64,000 bases of DNA, from contig CAVSRT010000013.1 of assembly GCA_963730435.1 (NCBI GenBank), positions 11,536-75,535 on the forward strand, written 5' to 3'. The stretch is from an uncultured Actinomycetota bacterium. GTDB lineage: Bacteria > Actinomycetota > Actinomycetes > Streptosporangiales > Streptosporangiaceae. Position 1 is the first letter of the stretch. Each line of letters begins with the position of its first letter. Shown piece after piece: positions 9,517 to 27,024 of this stretch. Made by a program: the position numbers and the translations under genes. Below the pieces are notes generated by a model that worked only from the letters and a program-made list of their open reading frames with translations, had not been told where the DNA came from and made no database searches.

Positions 9517-9966
9517 TCACGACCGCGGCGGGTGTGTGAGCCTGTGGCGTAGCCACCGGATTGCCCTGACAACCGCGAGTATGGCGAGGGTCTCGCTGAC
9601 CCCGCCGATCGCGACGTACAGATAACTCCACGAGCCGTTTAGCGGGTATGTATCACTGACCTGAGCGCCAGCTATCCAGATGACGATGGCAGCGGCCGCC
9701 AGGATAACTCCGCGGGGAAGCCGGGACTGGCGAGCCTGGCCGTCGGCCCGGAGCAGGAGGCGAGCGCTCGTGCCGGTTCCAGCGGCATACCGCAGCGCGC
9801 GCGCCGTGCGCAGTGGCGCGAGCCGGATATCTGGATCTTCCAGGATCGCGGGCAGTTCGGCCGCCCATTCCCGGCAGCGCTCATCGCGGGCGTCCTCCGG
9901 CAGGCCGCGGCACGCGCGCCGGATCAGGTACTCGGCCAGGCGCTGGCCGCGGGCGGCTCCAGTCAC
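9517..9966 (-). CDS. hypothetical membrane protein co-transcribed with the PadR regulator
   Basis: GTG start overlaps the PadR stop in a GTGA junction. There are two predicted TM helices in the C-terminal half (VILAAAAIVIWIAGA, YVAIGGVSETLAILAVV). Confidence 0.5.
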   Translation of the reverse strand: MTGAARGQRLAEYLIRRACRGLPEDARDERCREWAAELPAILEDPDIRLAPLRTARALRYAAGTGTSARLLLRADGQARQSRLPRGVILAAAAIVIWIAGAQVSDTYPLNGSWSYLYVAIGGVSETLAILAVVRAIRWLRHRLTHPPRS

Positions 9967-10328
9967 CGGGCGCTGCCCCGCGCCGTCCGCGCCGCCCGCG
10001 GCGTGCCCCCGGAAGCGCGCGGGGCGGACCTCGAGGCACGGGCGAGCTCGAGCCGCGCGACGCGGCTGCCCTCACCAGTGAGCTGATAGTACTTGCGGGG
10101 CGGCCTGCCGCCAGGCTCGTCGGCCGGAGGTTCCCACGCTGCGGCGAGCAGTCCCTCGTGCTGCAGGCGCGCCAGCATCGGGTAAAGCGTGCCGCTGGAC
10201 AAGCTGGCCGCCTTCATTAGGTTATAGCCGTGATGACGCGCTGCAGGGTCGGCCAGGAACACGCGCAGCACGCGCTCCAGTGGTCCGGTCAGCTTCACGA
10301 TGCCCAACACTACATATGTAGCCGACAT
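9963..10328 (-). CDS. PadR family transcriptional regulator
   Basis: Winged-helix signature GYNLMKA...SSGTLYPMLARLQHEGLL...RKYYQLTGEG. The ATG chosen lies 29 codons inside the track ORF, and the start is embedded in an ACATATGT repeat. Confidence 0.7.
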   Translation of the reverse strand: MSATYVVLGIVKLTGPLERVLRVFLADPAARHHGYNLMKAASLSSGTLYPMLARLQHEGLLAAAWEPPADEPGGRPPRKYYQLTGEGSRVARLELARASRSAPRASGGTPRAARTARGSAR

Positions 10329-19419: not shown

Positions 19420-20571
19420 TCAGCCTGCGAGGCCGGCGAAGCGCTCGTCGACCTGCTCAGCGGTCAGCCCGAAATCGGCCAGCGCATACTGATGCGCAGG
19501 CCTGCGGTCGCCGTGCGACGCCTCGGCGTGCAGCGCCCGCACGGCGTCCGCGGCCGCGTCGCTGTAGGGCAGGCCGAAGCGGTCGTAGACCGATTCGACG
19601 GTGCCGACCGGATCCGCGGTGAAGTCGGCATAGTCGACGTCCATGAACTGCGCCTGGTCATACCGCGCCCTGGCCGCCGCGAACTCCGCCAGCCCGCGCG
19701 CCCACAACTCGAGCTGATCGCTGCCGATGACACCGCCACGGAACGTGGCCGACCAGCCCGCGGCCGCATGCGCAGCGAGGCTGCACATGGAGCCGATGAC
19801 GGCGCGCGGCTCCCGGTGGGTCTGGATGATCAGCGCGTCCGGGTACACGGCGAGGATGGCGTCCAGCGCGAACAGGTGACTGGGGTTCTTCAGCACCCAC
19901 CGGCGGCCAGGCTCGTTCAGCCCGACGAGCTGGAGATTGCGCCGGTGCCTGCGGTAAGACCCCGTCCAGTCCTGGCCGTGGAGCCAGGCCGAATACGTCG
20001 GCAGGTGCGCCAGGCACTCATACGACACCGACCTCAGCGTCTGCCGCAGCAGCTGCCAGCACTCCTCCACCGTGTCGGCCGCCATGTAGTGCACGCCCAT
20101 GAACTCGGGATGCTCGACGTGATGCCGCTGGTACGCGGCGTGGATGTGCTGGAAGACCGGGTTGGCCGCCCAGGTGTCACGCGGCGGGCGCGGCTGCGGC
20201 ATCTCGGCCAGCCACAGCTCGAGGCCCTGATGATCGGGGTCCGCTGTCAGCAGCCGGTGCAGCGCGGTCGTCCCGCTCCGCGGCAGTCCGGTGACGAAGA
20301 TAGGCCGTTCGATCGGCACGTCGGCGTGCTCCGGATGGGCCGCCCACCCGGCCTCGCTGAGCAGCCGGGCGCCGAGGGCGCCGCGCAGCCCGACCCTGGC
20401 TGCCTTCTGGCCTAGCTGCGTGAGATCGGCGTCGCGCGCATAGGACTCCAGGATCACGGCCAGGCCGTCGCTGTAGTCGTCAACTCCGAAGTCGGTCAGC
20501 CCCGTCATCCTGCTGGCCGACTCGCGCAGGTCGTCGACCGTGCCGACGCTCTCCCGGTCGGTGGTCGTCAT
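19420..20571 (-). CDS. sulfotransferase family protein (PAPS-dependent, Sulfotransfer_3-like)
   Basis: 5'-PSB loop TGLPRSGTTALHRLL near the N-terminus of the conserved region. Start taken at the internal ATG (MTTTDRES), so about 383 aa. Confidence 0.7.
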   Translation of the reverse strand: MTTTDRESVGTVDDLRESASRMTGLTDFGVDDYSDGLAVILESYARDADLTQLGQKAARVGLRGALGARLLSEAGWAAHPEHADVPIERPIFVTGLPRSGTTALHRLLTADPDHQGLELWLAEMPQPRPPRDTWAANPVFQHIHAAYQRHHVEHPEFMGVHYMAADTVEECWQLLRQTLRSVSYECLAHLPTYSAWLHGQDWTGSYRRHRRNLQLVGLNEPGRRWVLKNPSHLFALDAILAVYPDALIIQTHREPRAVIGSMCSLAAHAAAGWSATFRGGVIGSDQLELWARGLAEFAAARARYDQAQFMDVDYADFTADPVGTVESVYDRFGLPYSDAAADAVRALHAEASHGDRRPAHQYALADFGLTAEQVDERFAGLAG

Positions 20572-20596
20572 CGCTGTCTGGTGATCATGAAGGCTC

Positions 20597-21373
20597 TCAG
20601 TGGTGGTACTCGCCGCAGTTGACGTCGAGGCACTGACCGGTGATGGCGCGCGCCAGCGGCGACGCCAGGAAGAGGATTGCGTCGGCGATCTCATCCGGCT
20701 CTGGCAGCCTGCCCAGGTCGATGTTCTGCGCCGTCTCGGCGTAGATCTCGTCCGGGTCGACGCCACGCTTCTTGGCCAGGTAGTTGAAGTACCACTTCAG
20801 CGACTCGCCCCAGATGTGGCCGGGGGCGACCGAGTTGACGCGGATGCCTTGCGGCCCGAGCTCGGTGGCCAGACTCTGCGCCATGGCCAGCAGGGACGCC
20901 TTGGCCATCTTGTAAGGGCCCATGGTGCGCTGCGAAAAGCGGACGACCATGGAGTTGACCATGACCACTGAGCCGGACGTCGCCGCGAGCGCCGGGATGA
21001 ACAGCCTGGTCATCCGCAGCGCGGAGATGACGTTGTTGCTGAACCCGGCTTCCACCGCAGCCAGGTCGACCTTGCCGAGGTCGGCGATCGGCGGCATGAC
21101 CAGGGCGTTGTGCACCAGCGCATCGACCCTGCCGAACTCGTCCAAGGACGCGGCGGCGAGCCGCTCGGCATCTGCCTCCACGGTCATGTCCGTTGGCACG
21201 ACCAGCGCCCGCCGGCCAAGCTCCTTGATCTCCGCCGCGACGTCCTCGAGCCGGGACACGGTGCGGGCGGCCAGCACCACGTCAGCGCCGGCCGCGGCGC
21301 CGCGGACCGCGATCTGCCGGCCAAGGTCCGGGCCGACGCCGGAGACGACAAGCACCTTGTCCTGGAGATACAT
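20597..21373 (-). CDS. SDR family oxidoreductase
   Basis: TGxxxGxG (VSGVGPDLGRQIA), NAG-like (HNALV) and catalytic YxxxK (GPYKMAK) motifs. Confidence 0.85.
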   Translation of the reverse strand: MYLQDKVLVVSGVGPDLGRQIAVRGAAAGADVVLAARTVSRLEDVAAEIKELGRRALVVPTDMTVEADAERLAAASLDEFGRVDALVHNALVMPPIADLGKVDLAAVEAGFSNNVISALRMTRLFIPALAATSGSVVMVNSMVVRFSQRTMGPYKMAKASLLAMAQSLATELGPQGIRVNSVAPGHIWGESLKWYFNYLAKKRGVDPDEIYAETAQNIDLGRLPEPDEIADAILFLASPLARAITGQCLDVNCGEYHH

Positions 21374-21392: not shown

Positions 21393-22571
21393 CTAGCCCA
21401 CCATCCGGTTCGCGACTGCGGCCTGCCGCGCGGCGATTCGCGCGCGGTACTCCTCCGGCGTGATCCGCGCCTGCTCGTAGTCCGGCAGCACCTGCGGCAC
21501 GCTGGCGAACGGGACGACCTCCACCTGCGGGCCGTCGGCGACCTCCAGGTCCCTCGTCAGCCGCTGCCAGCGGATCTGCACGTAACCGCGCGTCCGCCCG
21601 GTGAGCTCGAGCCAGTTAGCGACGCCGGGATCTCGCTCGCTGATCACGAACCGCAGCATGCCGTCGGCACTCGCGCGTGCCTGGTCCACGGTGAGGCTGG
21701 TCTGGTGATTGATGTAGTCGAGCGAGATGTACCACAGGCTGCCGAGCTGAATGCCCTGGTAAGGCGCGACGTCCTTACTCGCCGCCGGCACCGTCACGAT
21801 CATCGCCTGGTCCGCGCCAAGGTCGAAATGCCCGGCCGAGGAGAACTGCGTCGCCAGGCCGCCCGGCGTGCGGCGCGGCGGCGTCATCGTGTTTACCGGC
21901 TCCCTGAGATAGAACCACTCGGGAAAGGCAAGGAACGTCCTGATCCGCGACAGCAGCATCTTGCCCGCGACGCCGTAGCGCTTGGCTAGCAGCGCCTCGT
22001 CCGGGGGCTGCGGCGCGGCCCCGATCTTGTCTGCGCGCTGGATCCGCAAGGTGCCGCGCCGCTCCCCCGCCCAGTCGCTATAGACCTCGCGGACGACGAG
22101 CATCGCCGAACCCGGCCCGAGCGGCACGTAGCCAGCGGGCGCGTCTGACCTCGGCGGCCCGAACCGCAGCTCGAACGTGCCGTCCGGCCCGATGTCGAGG
22201 CGCCGGTCGTCAAAGGCAGTGAGGCTGTCCGGCACGTCGACGGGTGAGTAGTCGCCATTCAGCACCTGGAAGCTGAGGTCCGCCGTCGTGCCGCGCTGCC
22301 CGGTGACGATGTACTCGGCGTCGTCCCGCACGTACGCATGCAGGTAGAGGGTGTCCGGGTTGTCCAGGCCCAGCTTGGTATACGGGCCCGTCGACTGCAC
22401 GAAGGCCGGGAAGTCGCGATCGAAGGCCCAGGCCATATGCAGCGACGCCTGGATGCTGCCGGCCAGGTAGTCGTATCCCTCGGCCAGGTCCTGGTCAGTC
22501 TGCACGTGCGGCGCCGACGCGATGATCTTCTCGGCTTCGAGCACCGCGTCCGCGAACGACTGGGTGAGCAC
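21393..22571 (-). CDS. DUF1254/DUF1214 domain-containing protein (conserved actinobacterial hypothetical)
   Basis: 392 aa with the characteristic two-domain arrangement. Sits between the NTF2 and SDR genes in the same operon. Confidence 0.55.
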   Translation of the reverse strand: MLTQSFADAVLEAEKIIASAPHVQTDQDLAEGYDYLAGSIQASLHMAWAFDRDFPAFVQSTGPYTKLGLDNPDTLYLHAYVRDDAEYIVTGQRGTTADLSFQVLNGDYSPVDVPDSLTAFDDRRLDIGPDGTFELRFGPPRSDAPAGYVPLGPGSAMLVVREVYSDWAGERRGTLRIQRADKIGAAPQPPDEALLAKRYGVAGKMLLSRIRTFLAFPEWFYLREPVNTMTPPRRTPGGLATQFSSAGHFDLGADQAMIVTVPAASKDVAPYQGIQLGSLWYISLDYINHQTSLTVDQARASADGMLRFVISERDPGVANWLELTGRTRGYVQIRWQRLTRDLEVADGPQVEVVPFASVPQVLPDYEQARITPEEYRARIAARQAAVANRMVG

Positions 22572-24241: not shown

Positions 24242-24295
24242 TCCCGAAGACTTTGCGTCCGTGGCACACGCAAACTCTCCTGGATCATGGAAAAG
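24239..24295 (+). promoter_or_regulatory. copy A of a conserved about 55-nt nested-palindrome element (CATGATCCCGAAGACTTTGCGTCCGTGGCACACGCAAACTCTCCTGGATCATGG) immediately upstream of the cupin gene
   Basis: Outer arms CATGATCC/GGATCATG, inner arms TTTGCGT/ACGCAAA. A second copy lies at about 58008-58065. Confidence 0.5.
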
Positions 24296-24302
24296 TCGCA
24301 TC

Positions 24303-24695
24303 ATGGACGCCAAGCCAGTCAACCTGCACGCAGCCCTGAGCTCCTTCGACGAGATCTACAGCCCGCGAATCGTCACCCGGATGAACGACTACGACGTCCG
24401 GATCGCCCACGCCAAGGGCGAGCACGTCTGGCACGCGCACGCCGACACCGACGAGTTTTTCCTGGTCATCGACGGCCAGTTCGACATCGCGCTGCGTGAC
24501 GCCGACGGCGCCGAGCACGCGGTCAGCCTCCGCGAGGGCGACGTCTTCGTCGTCCCGAAGGGCACCGAGCACAAGCCGTCCTCCCCTGGCGGCTCGATCC
24601 TCATGTTCGAGCCGTCGCAGACGCTGTCCACCGGCGACTGGCACGAGGGCGAGATCCCCGACCACGTGCACAGCACGACCGGCCAGGAGCTCTAG
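24303..24695 (+). CDS. cupin domain-containing protein
   Basis: Cupin motifs G(X)5HXH(X)3,4E(X)6G-like: GEHVWHAHADTDEFFLVIDG and GDVFVVPKGTEHKP. Confidence 0.7.
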   Translation: MDAKPVNLHAALSSFDEIYSPRIVTRMNDYDVRIAHAKGEHVWHAHADTDEFFLVIDGQFDIALRDADGAEHAVSLREGDVFVVPKGTEHKPSSPGGSILMFEPSQTLSTGDWHEGEIPDHVHSTTGQEL

Positions 24696-24721: not shown

Positions 24722-25960
24722 CTAGCCGGCCTCCCGCAGCTCCCCTGCCAGCTCGCTGACCAGCTCACGCGGCAGGCCGTGCGTGTCGTGGAGGAACGCG
24801 TAGTCGTCCTCGCTCAGCTCGCCCGCCGGGTACAGCCGCTGCAGCAGCGACCGGCCGCGCGTCAGCAGTTCGCCGAACTTGCGCTCTTCCGTGAGCAGCA
24901 CCTCGCGCACGATGGAGGGCTCGACCGACAGGCCAAATCGCGAAGCCGTGTCCAGGACGAGCTCCGGCGGCAGCTCGCCCAGCGTCGGCTCACCGCGACC
25001 GGGCGCGCCGCGACCGGGCTCACCGCGACCGGGCTCACCGCGACCGGGCTCACCGTCCCACAACGATGTCAGCGCCCGCCGCAGCAGCCGCCGCAGCACG
25101 TATCCGCGCCCCGTGTTCGACGGCCGCACTCCATCGCCGATGATGACGATCGAGGATCGCAGGTGATCGGTGATGATTCGCAGCGACCGCTCGTCCGGCT
25201 GCCACAAGCCCGGCAGCACCGAGAGCCACGGCGCGAACAGGTCCGTGTCGAACACCGACGACACTCCCTGCGACACCATGAGCAGCCGCTCGAGGCCCAT
25301 GCCGGTGTCGACGCTCGGCTGTGACAGCGGGGACAGGCTCCCGTCGGGATGGCGCTCGTATCGCATCGTGACGTGGTTCCATAGCTCGAGCCACCGCGAA
25401 TCTGTGGCCGGGCTCCCTTGCGGCGGGCCCGTTCCCGTCCAGACGAAGATCTCCGAATCGGGCCCGCACGGTCCCGTCGGCCCGTTGGACCACCAGTTAT
25501 CGTCGGCGCCGAGCAGCTCGACCGGCAGCCCGAGGTCCGACCAGGTCGACAGCGCCGCGGTATCCGGTCCGACCTGGTCGTCTCCGGCGAACGCCGTCGC
25601 ATACAGCAGCCCCGGCTTCAGCCCGAAGTGGTCGCAGATCAGCTCGAGTCCCCACCGCAGGCTCTGCGGGCCGCCGTAATCACCCAGCGACCACGAGCCG
25701 AGCATCTGGAAGACGGTCAGGTGCGAGCTGTCGCCGACCTCCTCCAGGTCGGTAGTCCGCAGGCAGCGCTGGATCCCGGTCAGCCGCCGCCCAAGCGGAT
25801 GCGGCTCGCCCGCGAGATAGGGCGTCAGCGGATGCATGCCCGAGGTCGTGTAGAGGACCGGATCGCCAGGGCGCGGCAGGAGCGAGCTGCCGCTGATCTG
25901 GTGGTGTCCCCGGCTTCGGAAGAACTCAGTGAACGTTGAGATCGTCTGGCTGGTGTTCAT
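24722..25960 (-). CDS. alanine--tRNA ligase-like protein: aminoacylation plus tRNA-recognition domains only (no editing or C-Ala domains), with in-frame (GEPGR)4 insertion
   Basis: Class II motifs are conserved: FxxFF..GH, TVFQMLGSWSLGDYGG (motif 2 region), LWNHVTMRYERHPDGSLSPLSQPSVDTGMGLERL (motif 3/Ala pocket), VRPSNTGRGYVLRRLLRRA. The ORF ends at a position equivalent to about residue 450-460 of E. coli AlaRS. Confidence 0.75.
   Translation of the reverse strand: MNTSQTISTFTEFFRSRGHHQISGSSLLPRPGDPVLYTTSGMHPLTPYLAGEPHPLGRRLTGIQRCLRTTDLEEVGDSSHLTVFQMLGSWSLGDYGGPQSLRWGLELICDHFGLKPGLLYATAFAGDDQVGPDTAALSTWSDLGLPVELLGADDNWWSNGPTGPCGPDSEIFVWTGTGPPQGSPATDSRWLELWNHVTMRYERHPDGSLSPLSQPSVDTGMGLERLLMVSQGVSSVFDTDLFAPWLSVLPGLWQPDERSLRIITDHLRSSIVIIGDGVRPSNTGRGYVLRRLLRRALTSLWDGEPGRGEPGRGEPGRGAPGRGEPTLGELPPELVLDTASRFGLSVEPSIVREVLLTEERKFGELLTRGRSLLQRLYPAGELSEDDYAFLHDTHGLPRELVSELAGELREAG
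24955..25045. repeat. 15-bp tandem repeat (gctcaccgcgaccgg)n inside the AlaRS-like gene, encoding GEPGRGEPGRGEPGRGAPGRGEP
   Basis: Direct reading of the plus strand 24960-25040. Confidence 0.8.
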
Positions 25961-26415
25961 GGCGTGTGCGCCTCTCGGATTCGGGCGCCGGAAACTAGGC
26001 CGCGAGCGCAGCCATCAACCTGGGCGGAGAAAGGAGGCGCCGGCGAGCCGTTCCCGGTCGCCAGCAGGTGTGTGAGGTCAGGCAGCGGCAACCGGCGAGC
26101 ACGTAGCTCGCGCGGCGGCGACGACGATGCGTGGGCAACTGGACCTCATACGCATCACTGTACCCAGCACGCCGTCCAAGATCACAACCCATTAAACCGG
26201 AACGGGGCCGCCCGACCCGGTCCCGGCCCACCCAGGCGCCGTGAGCCCCGCGCACGCGAGCCGACCCGCGGCAAACTCGGCAATAACTCCCAGACCGCTC
26301 GGGATTCCCGCAAGATATCTGTTGGTCCCAGGGTTGCTGGCGACTCCCACTAGTGCACCGGCCCTGACCTACCGGCCCAGACCTGCCGGCACTGACCCGA
26401 AGGGATCCACCAGCC

Positions 26416-27024
26416 ATGAAGCCGTTCCTCGTCGCGACCCTCGCCGCCGCGGGCCTTACCTTGTGCGCCTGCTCCGGCGGCTCGGGCGGGACCGCTCAGC
26501 CCACGAATACCGTCACGGTCACTGCGCCCGCGTCCGCTCCGGCCGCCAGCCAGTCGACCAGCCCCACGACCGCCGCCCCGACCTCGTCAGCTGCGGCCGC
26601 TGGCTGCCTGACCCGGTACCTGAACGGCTCGGTCGGGCTTACTCAGGGCACCTCCGGCGCGGTCGAGGTTGTGATCGTCTTCAAGAACCTCAACAACGTC
26701 CCGTGCACGCTCTATGGCTTCCCCGGCGTCGCCCAGGCGGCCGGCACGCCGGTGACCGACATCGGGAATCCGTCGACCGAGAATCACTCCACATCGCGTG
26801 AGCTGGTCACGCTTCAGCCTGGCGGCTTCGCCAACGCGACTCTGCAGATCTCCGACGCGGGCAACTTCCCGGCCTCGGCCTGCACGCAGGTGCGAGCGCC
26901 GTGGCTCGCGGTCATCCCGCCGAACCAGACGATCCCGCTCTACGTCCACTACAGCTCGACCGCCTGCAAGGGCTCGGCGAAGCTAATGTCGGTCACCGCG
27001 GTCCGGCCCGGCAACGGCGGCTGA
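26416..27024 (+). CDS. DUF4232 domain-containing lipoprotein
   Basis: Signal peptide plus lipobox (LTLCAC). Ser/Thr/Pro/Ala-rich linker, then Cys-containing DUF4232 core (AAGCLTRYLNGS...VPCTLYGFPGV...ACTQV...). Confidence 0.7.
   Translation: MKPFLVATLAAAGLTLCACSGGSGGTAQPTNTVTVTAPASAPAASQSTSPTTAAPTSSAAAAGCLTRYLNGSVGLTQGTSGAVEVVIVFKNLNNVPCTLYGFPGVAQAAGTPVTDIGNPSTENHSTSRELVTLQPGGFANATLQISDAGNFPASACTQVRAPWLAVIPPNQTIPLYVHYSSTACKGSAKLMSVTAVRPGNGG

Follow-up and report, generated by a model that had tools for sequence, protein, structure and literature searches.

The window analyzed here is a stretch of 64,000 nucleotides (contig CAVSRT010000013.1; G+C content 68.8%) from a Streptosporangiaceae-like metagenome-assembled genome (MAG). 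Its minus strand carries a gene for a protein of 412 amino acids that corresponds to the N-terminal part of alanyl-tRNA synthetase (AlaRS), preceded by a leader with a promoter, a short open reading frame (sORF) rich in alanine codons, and a terminator-like hairpin. The gene is a real and widely conserved actinobacterial mini-AlaRS without an editing or C-Ala domain, apparently the ortholog of Streptomyces alaS2; it may encode an inducible backup enzyme used when translation is under stress or when alanyl-tRNA (Ala-tRNA) is short. The gene itself comprises the following features.

24722-25960, minus strand: AlaRS-like coding sequence, 412 amino acids, ATG start, stop codon included (open reading frame (ORF) list, PF01411, NCBIfam, AlphaFold2 (AF2), and Foldseek)
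25286-25759, minus strand: span of the active-site residues R68, W157, E170, E192, N195, V197, D218, G220, and R225 (alignment)
24785-25117, minus strand: span of the G3:U70-reading residues, from N282 (25117-25115) to D392 (24787-24785) (alignment columns)

The ORF and its class II AlaRS motifs are as the first-pass annotation of this DNA described them. The protein consists of the AlaRS catalytic domain (residues ~1-245) and the helical tRNA-recognition domain (~246-412) only. PF01411 (tRNA-synt_2c), the class II AlaRS core, covers residues 8-298 (E = 5.2e-84, 283 bits) and is the sole Pfam match, with no second domain of the editing or C-Ala type. The NCBIfam alaS equivalogs TIGR00344 and NF002436 (the latter being the best NCBIfam match) both score under their cut-offs, at 308.6 against 529 and 293.8 against 457 bits, respectively. 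The motifs WNHVTMRYERHPDG, VDTGMGLERL, and PSNTGRGYVLRRLLRRA are present, and sequence matches in the PDB are catalytic fragments of bacterial and human AlaRS (1e-58 to 1e-66). An AF2 model built on a 64-sequence alignment is confident (mean per-residue confidence, pLDDT, 93.7; predicted template-modeling score, pTM, 0.91) and low only at residues ~301-326; a Foldseek search with it places the AlaRS fragments 9jdn, 5knn, 3hxu, and 1riq on top (E = 1e-34 to 1e-37, TM 0.80-0.85). The chain stops right after a DTHGLP motif, which aligns with about residue 419-420 of Escherichia coli AlaRS.

When six full-length AlaRS were compared with the window by tblastn, only their first ~420 residues matched, at 25960-24740, and no match involved residues past ~430. 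Editing or C-Ala sequence was found neither elsewhere in the 64-kb window, in any frame, nor within ±10 kb of 80 related genes. Pfam and tblastn agree in this respect with the original description of a stand-alone paralog lacking both domains, and the absence of editing sequence downstream upholds its account of a monocistronic gene, convergent with a cupin gene, that is not a frameshifted alaS.

Active-site and tRNA-reading positions were compared across 54 members of the truncated family, 45 full-length AlaRS, and 33 short AlaRS. The pocket residues R68, W157, E170, E192, N195, V197, D218, G220, and R225 are equivalent to E. coli R69, W170, E183, E209, N212, V214, D235, G237, and R242; these nine ATP- and alanine-binding residues are invariant in all three sets, bearing out the earlier statement that the alanine pocket is intact. 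In E. coli AlaRS, the G3:U70 identity pair of tRNA-Ala is read by Asn303 and Asp400 (PMC10036535; PMC12945691), to which N282 and D392 of the window protein correspond. Within the family the first is Asn in 47 of 54 members and the second Asp in 38 and Glu in 12, and the basic RGYVLRRLLRRA helix is kept. Two apparent anomalies were discarded. A four-residue gap in the motif-2 loop relative to E. coli (a "GGKH deletion"), considered as a sign of lost binding of the tRNA 3′ end, is ordinary, because the short loop QKC.RT.D..VG occurs in 43 of the 45 full-length and all 33 short AlaRS; this GGKH-less loop is typical of most full-length AlaRS of the Gram-positive type. A D34G substitution reported by automatic comparison is an alignment shift at a one-residue deletion, the DP motif being present.

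Thousands of relatives were found in the protein collection. The best 120 are 390-446 amino acids long and 71-100% identical to the window protein over 95-100% of the query; family members that carry an NCBI name are called "alanine--tRNA ligase-related protein." Members typically have ~390 residues (~388-412) and a common C-terminus just after DTHGLP, a pattern that the window protein fits. A scan of one genome per species returned members at 59-84% identity in Streptosporangiaceae MAGs, Micromonospora, Dactylosporangium, Planosporangium, Actinocrinis, Nocardiopsis, and Streptomyces; those of Streptomyces, Micromonospora, and Dactylosporangium are 59-63% identical to the window protein (Streptomyces, 60-63%). 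Searches seeded from Streptomyces indicated that the gene is common in Streptomyces and Kitasatospora, including complete chromosomes of 7-11 Mb. The truncated length and the C-terminus are the same across hundreds of genomes, and identities of 60-87% across genera point to purifying selection.

Outside the family, a HMMER search over representatives at 50% identity found AlaRS of ~580-610 residues nearest (44-51% identity), followed by full-length enzymes of ~880 residues (41-47%). AlaRS of the ~590-residue kind have the editing core (tRNA_SAD) and lack C-Ala. In a neighbor-joining tree of 132 N-terminal domains, built without taxon labels, the truncated family was monophyletic in 41 of 50 bootstraps; its sister is a 581-residue protein (P0124). 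Provisionally, the family thus seems to have arisen by additional shortening of an AlaRS lineage that was already short, and not by recent copying of the housekeeping gene of the host. The P0124/P0277 cluster (locus L081, 8001-9746) is a high-G+C AlaRS with catalytic and tRNA_SAD domains and no C-Ala. P0124 shares A107S and D187W with the truncated family, and its locus follows an Mrp-type antiporter operon.

The leader (26196-25971, minus strand), which the first-pass annotation had not described, was found by aligning upstream regions, where it forms a block common to non-syntenic loci of different genera. It contains the following elements.

26157-26196, minus strand: promoter of WblC/WhiB7-type architecture, comprising TTTAAT (26196-26191), 3 nt, −35 box TTGTGA (26187-26182), 19 nt, and −10 box TACAGT (26162-26157)
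26078-26149, minus strand: putative leaderless sORF of 23 codons plus TGA, encoding MRSSCPRIVVAAARATCSPVAAA, its ATG 7 nt after the −10 box (frame conservation)
26030-26119, minus strand: leader core matched by covariance model R1, spanning the sORF end and hairpin T (97.1 bits, E = 8e-18)
26095-26111, minus strand: hairpin H1 within the sORF, GCGAGC-UACGU-GCUCGC (pairs in 96.7% of cells)
26086-26095, minus strand: candidate antiterminator arm CCGGUUGCCG, formed by the last sORF codons and complementary to the 5′ arm of hairpin T (pairing survey)
26039-26065, minus strand: hairpin T, GCUGGCGACC-GGGAAC-GGCUCGCCGGC, terminator-like and G+C-rich with a one-base bulge (covariation)
26026-26038, minus strand: pyrimidine-rich tail GCCUCCUUUCUCC, a weak U-tract directly 3′ of hairpin T (T counts, minimum free energy (MFE) fold)
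25998-26013, minus strand: small hairpin P1, GGCUGCGCUCGCGGCC, conserved in sequence and position across loci (forms in MFE folds)
25971-25976, minus strand: Shine-Dalgarno sequence GAGAGG of the AlaRS-like gene, predicted to be paired (RNAalifold, MFE folds)

Leader and gene form a fixed pair, as seen in two data sets. Model R1 (seed of 50 sequences; about 30 of the genome loci with hits lie outside the seed) gives a single strong match (64-100 bits) per locus, ahead of the gene and on its strand, both in the window and at 80 of 80 genome loci (81/81); the locus of the 581-residue sister, L081, has no match, and the rest of the 1.46 Mb scored at most 25.5 bits. In metagenomes, an exact pattern of the leader core was found on 120 contigs; 110 of these have the gene directly downstream, and the remaining 10 are too short to judge (nine end within 250 nt past the core and one at 275 nt), so that all 110 informative contigs carry the pair. 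The core, ~45 nt long, is almost invariant across genera. A search of the entire window against Rfam 15 at gathering thresholds was negative, as was one of 25800-26600 at E ≤ 5. A T-box or riboswitch was considered and rejected on this ground and because the UGGN/specifier logic fails, the candidate CUGGCG being CCGGCG in many loci. Spacing varies at a few loci. In one MAG (L064, 9087-9183) the core lies ~820 nt upstream of the gene instead of ~120 nt, which suggests an insertion between the two. Two Streptomyces loci (L053, ~9700-10000; L061, ~9800-10000) have Thr/Pro/His-rich repeats (...CAGACCCGCACC..., THTPPTT-like) in the N-terminus or leader region, and their core lies 156-187 nt before the annotated start, farther than in other genera.

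The WblC motif of S. coelicolor consists of GAAAWY 3 nt upstream of the −35 box, a spacer of 16-19 bp, and a transcription start 7-8 bp after TANNNT (PMC7157823). Among 72 loci aligned on the −10 box, an AT-rich pentamer stands out at 54-93% A/T over a background of ~20-30%, followed after ~3 nt by a TTG-type −35 box; the distance from the end of the block to the −10 box is the modal 26-29 nt in 50 of the 72. The GAAAWY score is at least 5/6 in 40 of the 72 loci, and Streptomyces members carry GAAATC or AAAATC.

The sORF was evaluated by collecting all combinations of TANNNT, 6 or 7 nt, and ATG or GTG upstream of the core, irrespective of frame. Of the 187 combinations, 185 are in frame with an invariant TGA; they fall into 12 length classes (18-31 codons) with zero internal stops. 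The leader sORF is therefore a kept coding frame, and it is probably translated. The spacing of its start codon from the −10 box, seen against a transcription start 7-8 bp after TANNNT, fits leaderless initiation (PMC7157823). Counted from the stop, the consensus peptide reads A(−13) A A R A [I/T] x S P V A A A, with alanine codons clustered at −13 to −11, −9, and −3 to −1; alanine accounts for 32% of the leader peptide but for only 2% of the variable N-terminal stretch. Although no conserved helix includes positions −13 and −12, both are alanine in ~80% of loci, with codons GCG (87), GCC (11), GCA (10), and GCT (5) at −13 (n = 143) and GCC (100), GCG (11), and ACC (21) at −12. At these two positions at least, alanine is thus selected as a codon and not as RNA sequence. 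Later codons of the sORF (CGA, GCT, GTT, and others) are nearly invariant, synonymous sites included, which points to constraint on the RNA.

Among the RNA elements, hairpin T is the best supported. It can pair in 97.1% of cells, compared with 31-41% in slid controls; double-sided changes occur at three of its pairs (C-G to U-A, G-C to A-U; 11 cells), a covariation reached by none of 500 column shuffles; and a regular-expression form of the motif is present in 78 loci. The 10 nt past it hold a mean of 3.4 T against 1.7 expected (the window tail is CGCCTCCTTTCT), with clear U-runs in Dactylosporangium (GCCGGCTTTTTTG), Actinocrinis, and some MAGs. In 95.8% of cells the antiterminator arm can form pairs with the 5′ side of hairpin T, compared with 12-57% when the partner is slid by 1-3 columns. 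The Shine-Dalgarno sequence is predicted to be sequestered in two ways: outside the window clade RNAalifold places it in a local GGUCCUUUCC/GGAAAGGACC helix, in which 3 of 8 pairs show compensatory changes, and in the window clade the MFE fold pairs the pyrimidine tract after hairpin T with the Shine-Dalgarno region GAGAGGCGC.

The S. violaceoruber group, which includes S. coelicolor A3(2), has a family member of 401-404 amino acids. Two AlaRS paralogs have been described in S. coelicolor, alaS (SCO1501) and alaS2 (SCO7600), and only alaS2 is dependent on WblC and on tetracycline (PMC7157823). Taken together, these two points suggest that SCO7600 is a member of the truncated family. Published data place alaS2 in a WblC regulon that is enriched for tRNA aminoacylation functions and also includes smpB (PMC7157823), with a 41.6-fold RNA induction and a chromatin immunoprecipitation (ChIP) enrichment of 13.1 (PMC7157823 supplement). 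After cold shock, SCO7600 is transcriptionally induced and translationally repressed (bioRxiv 10.1101/2025.04.11.648403); the repression fits a sequestered Shine-Dalgarno site. In mycobacteria, the alanine-rich upstream ORF (uORF) of whiB7 senses alanine starvation (bioRxiv 10.1101/2023.06.02.543512); alanine use by trans-translation feeds back on this uORF, which answers many translation inhibitors as well. The gene in the window organism may depend on WblC, as alaS2 does. The searchable text of the literature makes no mention of the truncation of alaS2, its missing editing domain, or a leader ORF.

The conserved leader and the published alaS2 data together point to a stress-induced role in translation. 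With moderate confidence, we favor the view that the gene encodes an inducible, editing-free backup AlaRS that acts under translation stress or Ala-tRNA shortage. The enzyme would activate alanine and charge tRNA-Ala, and possibly other acceptor stems with a G3:U70 pair such as that of tmRNA, as a backup or booster to the housekeeping AlaRS; activity and RNA substrate (tRNA-Ala, tmRNA, or both) are predicted here from the conserved residues. There is precedent in a natural mini-AlaRS that can substitute for the yeast enzyme in vivo (PMC10036535). Control would be exerted in three layers. A WblC/WhiB7-type promoter would be active under translation stress. The alanine codons of the leaderless sORF (~20 codons), which lie just before or within the RNA switch, would then sense charged tRNA: in a shortage of Ala-tRNA the ribosome would stall at AAA-R-A, the 3′ part of the sORF would pair with the 5′ arm of hairpin T as an antiterminator, and transcription would read through, whereas translation to the sORF stop would allow hairpin T to form instead. 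Finally, the Shine-Dalgarno sequence would be held in a helix. Leader and hairpin thus probably turn the gene on when charged alanine tRNA is short, the attenuation mechanism being a prediction from codon and pairing patterns. Induction at Ala-tRNA shortage suits an enzyme that makes Ala-tRNA, which favors a producer over a consumer. Of the three roles suggested in the first-pass annotation, that of an editing-free charging enzyme is the most plausible, and the other two (natural-product and cell-wall chemistry) are unsupported.

A fuller scenario is speculative and, taken as a whole, rather improbable. AlaS2 would be an editing-free "emergency" AlaRS that reads the acceptor stem only, is placed under joint control of WhiB7/WblC and the alanine leader when ribosomes stall, and keeps tmRNA and tRNA-Ala charged during heavy trans-translation. 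This role is proposed because the tmRNA tag is alanine-rich and smpB belongs to the same regulon. The enzyme might also make Ser- and Gly-tRNA-Ala, leading to regulated mistranslation under antibiotics, and the leader would be the first alanine-specific attenuator of an aminoacyl-tRNA synthetase.

Several observations weigh against the backup-enzyme reading. Fragments of 441 and 461 residues were used in classical AlaRS work, and the window protein is shorter than either; 461N is the shortest E. coli AlaRS fragment known to us to aminoacylate tRNA. The first-pass annotation had equated the protein with this classical fragment of about 460 residues and placed its end where the editing domain begins. 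Neither description holds: with its end near E. coli residue 420, the chain is ~40 residues shorter than the 461-residue fragment and stops well before the editing domain starts. C-Ala, which is absent from the window protein, is the main tRNA-binding module (PMC10036535). Four substitutions, E91Q, K103G, D187W, and F215T (E. coli numbering), are family-wide at positions that are 93-100% conserved in full-length AlaRS; the strand periodicity of invariant residues suggests a back-face position in the sheet for E91, K103, and F215, and D187W is also present in some short AlaRS that have an editing domain. In the leader, the stem of H1 never covaries, so its conservation is uninformative on structure; covariation of the antiterminator pairing is not above that of shuffles; and a clear U-tract (at least 5 T) follows hairpin T in only ~20% of loci, with 1.7% expected. 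The AT block of the window promoter (TTTAAT) fits GAAAWY at only 4 of 6 positions, although its geometry fits, and a simple scan of 25900-26450 for sigma-70 promoters and terminators was empty, its E. coli-style consensus being too strict for a G+C-rich leader. Lastly, SCO7600 most likely belongs to the truncated family, a placement that we infer from the evidence above.

With respect to the leader, it might instead be a general sensor of ribosome stalling by antibiotics, or might act only on translation or mRNA stability, the alanine codons being a by-product of G+C-rich RNA structure. The most conserved alanine codons (−11, −9, and −3 to −1) do overlap an H1 arm or the antiterminator arm, the whiB7 uORF responds to many translation inhibitors besides alanine shortage, many loci are without a U-tract, the Shine-Dalgarno sequence is sequestered, and SCO7600 is induced as a transcript while being repressed in translation after cold shock (bioRxiv 10.1101/2025.04.11.648403). 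Positions −13 and −12, however, use all four alanine codons outside the helices and are alanine in ~80% of loci, and the variable N-terminal part of the peptide has only 2% alanine. We regard this explanation as doubtful, with a substantial minority chance of being right; the general and the alanine-specific readings are not mutually exclusive.

The main alternative for the protein is that it activates alanine without charging tRNA, either as an adenylate-forming enzyme with another acceptor (for example, to make a signaling nucleotide) or as a sensor or regulator that binds alanine and ATP, uncharged tRNA-Ala, or tmRNA (for example, by titrating tRNA). The truncated synthetase paralogs AsnA, HisZ, and the SerRS-like amino acid:carrier-protein ligases work in this manner. 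An intact active site is compatible with such a function, as are the four family-wide substitutions and the absence of C-Ala and of the equivalents of E. coli ~421-461, both of which aid tRNA binding (PMC10036535). Retention of the G3:U70-reading Asn and Asp and of the basic RGYVLRRLLRRA helix would nevertheless be difficult to account for if the protein had no acceptor-stem substrate; a conserved partner gene, for a carrier protein for example, was not found near the gene, and alaS2 belongs to a regulon enriched for tRNA aminoacylation (PMC7157823). On balance, we give a non-charging enzyme or sensor a small probability.

An aminoacyl-tRNA-dependent transferase comparable to AcmF, which would bind Ala-tRNA-Ala and move the alanine to a small molecule, a peptide, or a cell-wall precursor, is quite unlikely. 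AcmF comes from an actinomycete and has the same truncated two-domain shape (PMC12945691), and the window protein is without the domains needed for efficient canonical charging. AcmF, however, lacks most of the activation residues (N219Q, D232E) and the Asn and Asp readers, where the window protein retains N195, D218, N282, and D392, so that the two differ at every diagnostic residue; AcmF is 27% identical to its nearest AlaRS, compared with 41-51% for the truncated family. The gene has no conserved biosynthetic neighborhood and no adjacent second AlaRS or hydrolase, and its neighbors are unconserved beyond close relatives; the link to natural-product or cell-wall chemistry suggested at first is unsupported. 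Induction when Ala-tRNA is scarce would also be counterproductive for a consumer of Ala-tRNA.

The idea that the gene is a decaying remnant, or an assembly or frameshift artifact of housekeeping alaS, to which the sub-threshold NCBIfam equivalog scores might point, is refuted and excluded by a length and C-terminus that are constant in hundreds of genomes (complete Streptomyces chromosomes among them), the lack of editing-domain sequence in any frame of the 64 kb, a convergent cupin gene that ends 26 bp past the stop, a confident AF2 fold, and a dedicated conserved leader.

The tRNA-recognition domain of the window protein contains a tandem repeat.

24987-25055, minus strand: 15-nt tandem repeat, 4.6 copies, in frame, residues 303-325, GEPGRGEPGRGEPGRGAPGRGEP (Tandem Repeats Finder, unit listing)

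Tandem Repeats Finder reports a 15-nt unit in 4.6 copies (92% matches, score 124), made up of three identical units (CGGTGAGCCCGGTCG), one variant, and a partial unit. The in-frame GEPGR ×4 repeat of the first-pass annotation is upheld. The repeat lies in the loop after the RRLLRRA helix, where AF2 gives a pLDDT of ~50-58 (residues 301-326) and thus predicts a disordered surface loop. The commonest form of the family, of 391 residues and basal, has a short loop, LWQVDGALTVGDLP, without a repeat, and other lineages carry independent repeats at the same site (GEPGH ×3, SGELG ×2, SGGDRPALW ×3, and glycine-rich runs). Unrelated tandem peptide repeats with units of 5, 8, or 9 residues were seen in this loop in P0004, P0007, P0018, P0031, P0056, P0063, and P0110. 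Comparison of these sequences identifies the loop after RRLLRRA as a recurrent slippage hot spot. The three identical DNA units in the window suggest a recent event, and the sequences indicate that the GEPGR repeat is a recent slippage expansion with no sign of function beyond tolerance of length in a disordered loop.

Downstream of the AlaRS-like gene, separated from it by a gap of 26 bp, lies the convergent cupin gene.

24261-24695, plus strand: Cupin_2 gene (ORF list)

Other neighbors in the window encode a sulfotransferase, a short-chain dehydrogenase/reductase (SDR), a 392-residue protein without a family, a SnoaL-like protein, a luciferase-like (LLM) oxidoreductase, a DUF4232 protein, an APH-like kinase, a FabV-like enoyl reductase, and a glyoxalase. 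ORF calling and clustering over the 80 loci indicated that these genes recur only in ~25 closely related MAGs. A conserved operon partner or neighborhood was considered and rejected, as no gene family follows the paralog across genera in the 80 clustered loci. Neighborhood analysis and tblastn found no biosynthetic cluster, carrier-protein-like partner, AlaX-like gene, second AlaRS, or adjacent hydrolase near the gene. Three further observations concern the surroundings. A Sulfotransfer_3 ORF (19420-20766, minus strand) overlaps the SDR gene (20597-21373, minus strand) by ~170 nt and matches Pfam only from residue 155, its true start probably lying further downstream. The 392-residue ORF (21393-22571, minus strand) has coding-like composition and is kept in ~22 syntenic loci, with no Pfam match at E ≤ 0.001. 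A 14-nt tandem repeat (ACCGGCCCTGACCT, 2.9 copies, 85% matches) occupies 26357-26397, between the divergent genes and shortly before the start of the DUF4232 gene at 26416.

AlaRS is usually described as keeping a four-domain prototype throughout biology, and the mini-AlaRS of Tupanvirus is the reported exception (PMC10036535). By the present analysis, soil Actinomycetes, Streptomyces included, commonly have a bacterial mini-AlaRS whose active site and G3:U70 reader are intact, and its gene stands under an apparently dedicated alanine-sensing leader and a WhiB7/WblC-type promoter. Whether a proofreading-free AlaRS is deployed in antibiotic or alanine stress, whether it supports trans-translation, and whether it contributes to intrinsic resistance are questions that can now be tested. 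The leader, compact and highly conserved, is a candidate riboregulator with no Rfam entry. If activity is lacking or turns out to be that of a transferase, the family would instead exemplify a new kind of aminoacyl-tRNA synthetase repurposing.

Parts of this system are already known: the gene family is annotated and its Streptomyces member has been assigned to a regulon, its truncated nature having gone largely unremarked. The closest relatives outside the family, the short AlaRS of ~580-610 residues (NF002436/PRK01584 type), keep the tRNA_SAD editing core, and the locus of one of them, P0124, has no match to the leader model, unlike those of the truncated family. S. coelicolor AlaS2 (SCO7600) is, like the window gene, an AlaRS paralog apart from the housekeeping alaS, and Streptomyces family members have this leader too, with a GAAATC-type block ahead of their −35 box. 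The report on the WblC regulon treats AlaS2 simply as a second Ala-tRNA synthetase (PMC7157823). The window differs from Streptomyces, the host of AlaS2, in coming from a Streptosporangiaceae-like MAG and in its lineage-specific GEPGR repeat.

Like the window protein, the Tupanvirus mini-AlaRS is a natural protein with catalytic and tRNA-recognition domains only, and it charges tRNA-Ala and microhelix-Ala (PMC10036535). The two differ in type, eukaryotic (that of the host) for the viral enzyme and bacterial for the actinobacterial family, and the G3:U70-reading Asn and Asp are lost in the former and kept in the latter. A further difference is that the actinobacterial enzyme probably occurs alongside a full-length AlaRS and is probably stress-regulated. 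The ascamycin alanyl transferase AcmF resembles the window protein in being a truncated, AlaRS-like actinomycete protein with the same two domains. AcmF (370 residues, 27% identity to AlaRS) uses Ala-tRNA as donor and is encoded in a biosynthetic cluster beside AcmD and AcmE (PMC12945691; ACS Catal 2024, 14:3533 cited there). Its traits, namely loss of residues and a cluster with a dedicated full-length AlaRS and a hydrolase, are not seen in the window protein or at its locus.

The leader has its nearest parallels among leader-peptide attenuators. As in the trp, his, and pheST leaders, the whiB7 uORF, and the poly-Cys sORFs (bioRxiv 10.1101/834739), the regulated gene is preceded by an sORF rich in the cognate codon, with a stable hairpin after the sORF and an alternative pairing that overlaps the sORF end. 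Leaderless initiation of the sORF would be as in mycobacterial sORFs (bioRxiv 10.1101/834739). Unlike known attenuators, this leader belongs to a synthetase paralog, would work through alanine codons, and comes together with a WblC-type promoter and a Shine-Dalgarno site predicted to be sequestered; it also differs from them in having no Rfam family and in carrying a canonical U-tract in a minority of loci only. As far as the literature can be searched, a leaderless ORF of alanine codons with a hairpin, fixed to this gene across Actinomycetes, is undescribed; in kind, it is a variant of leader-peptide attenuation.

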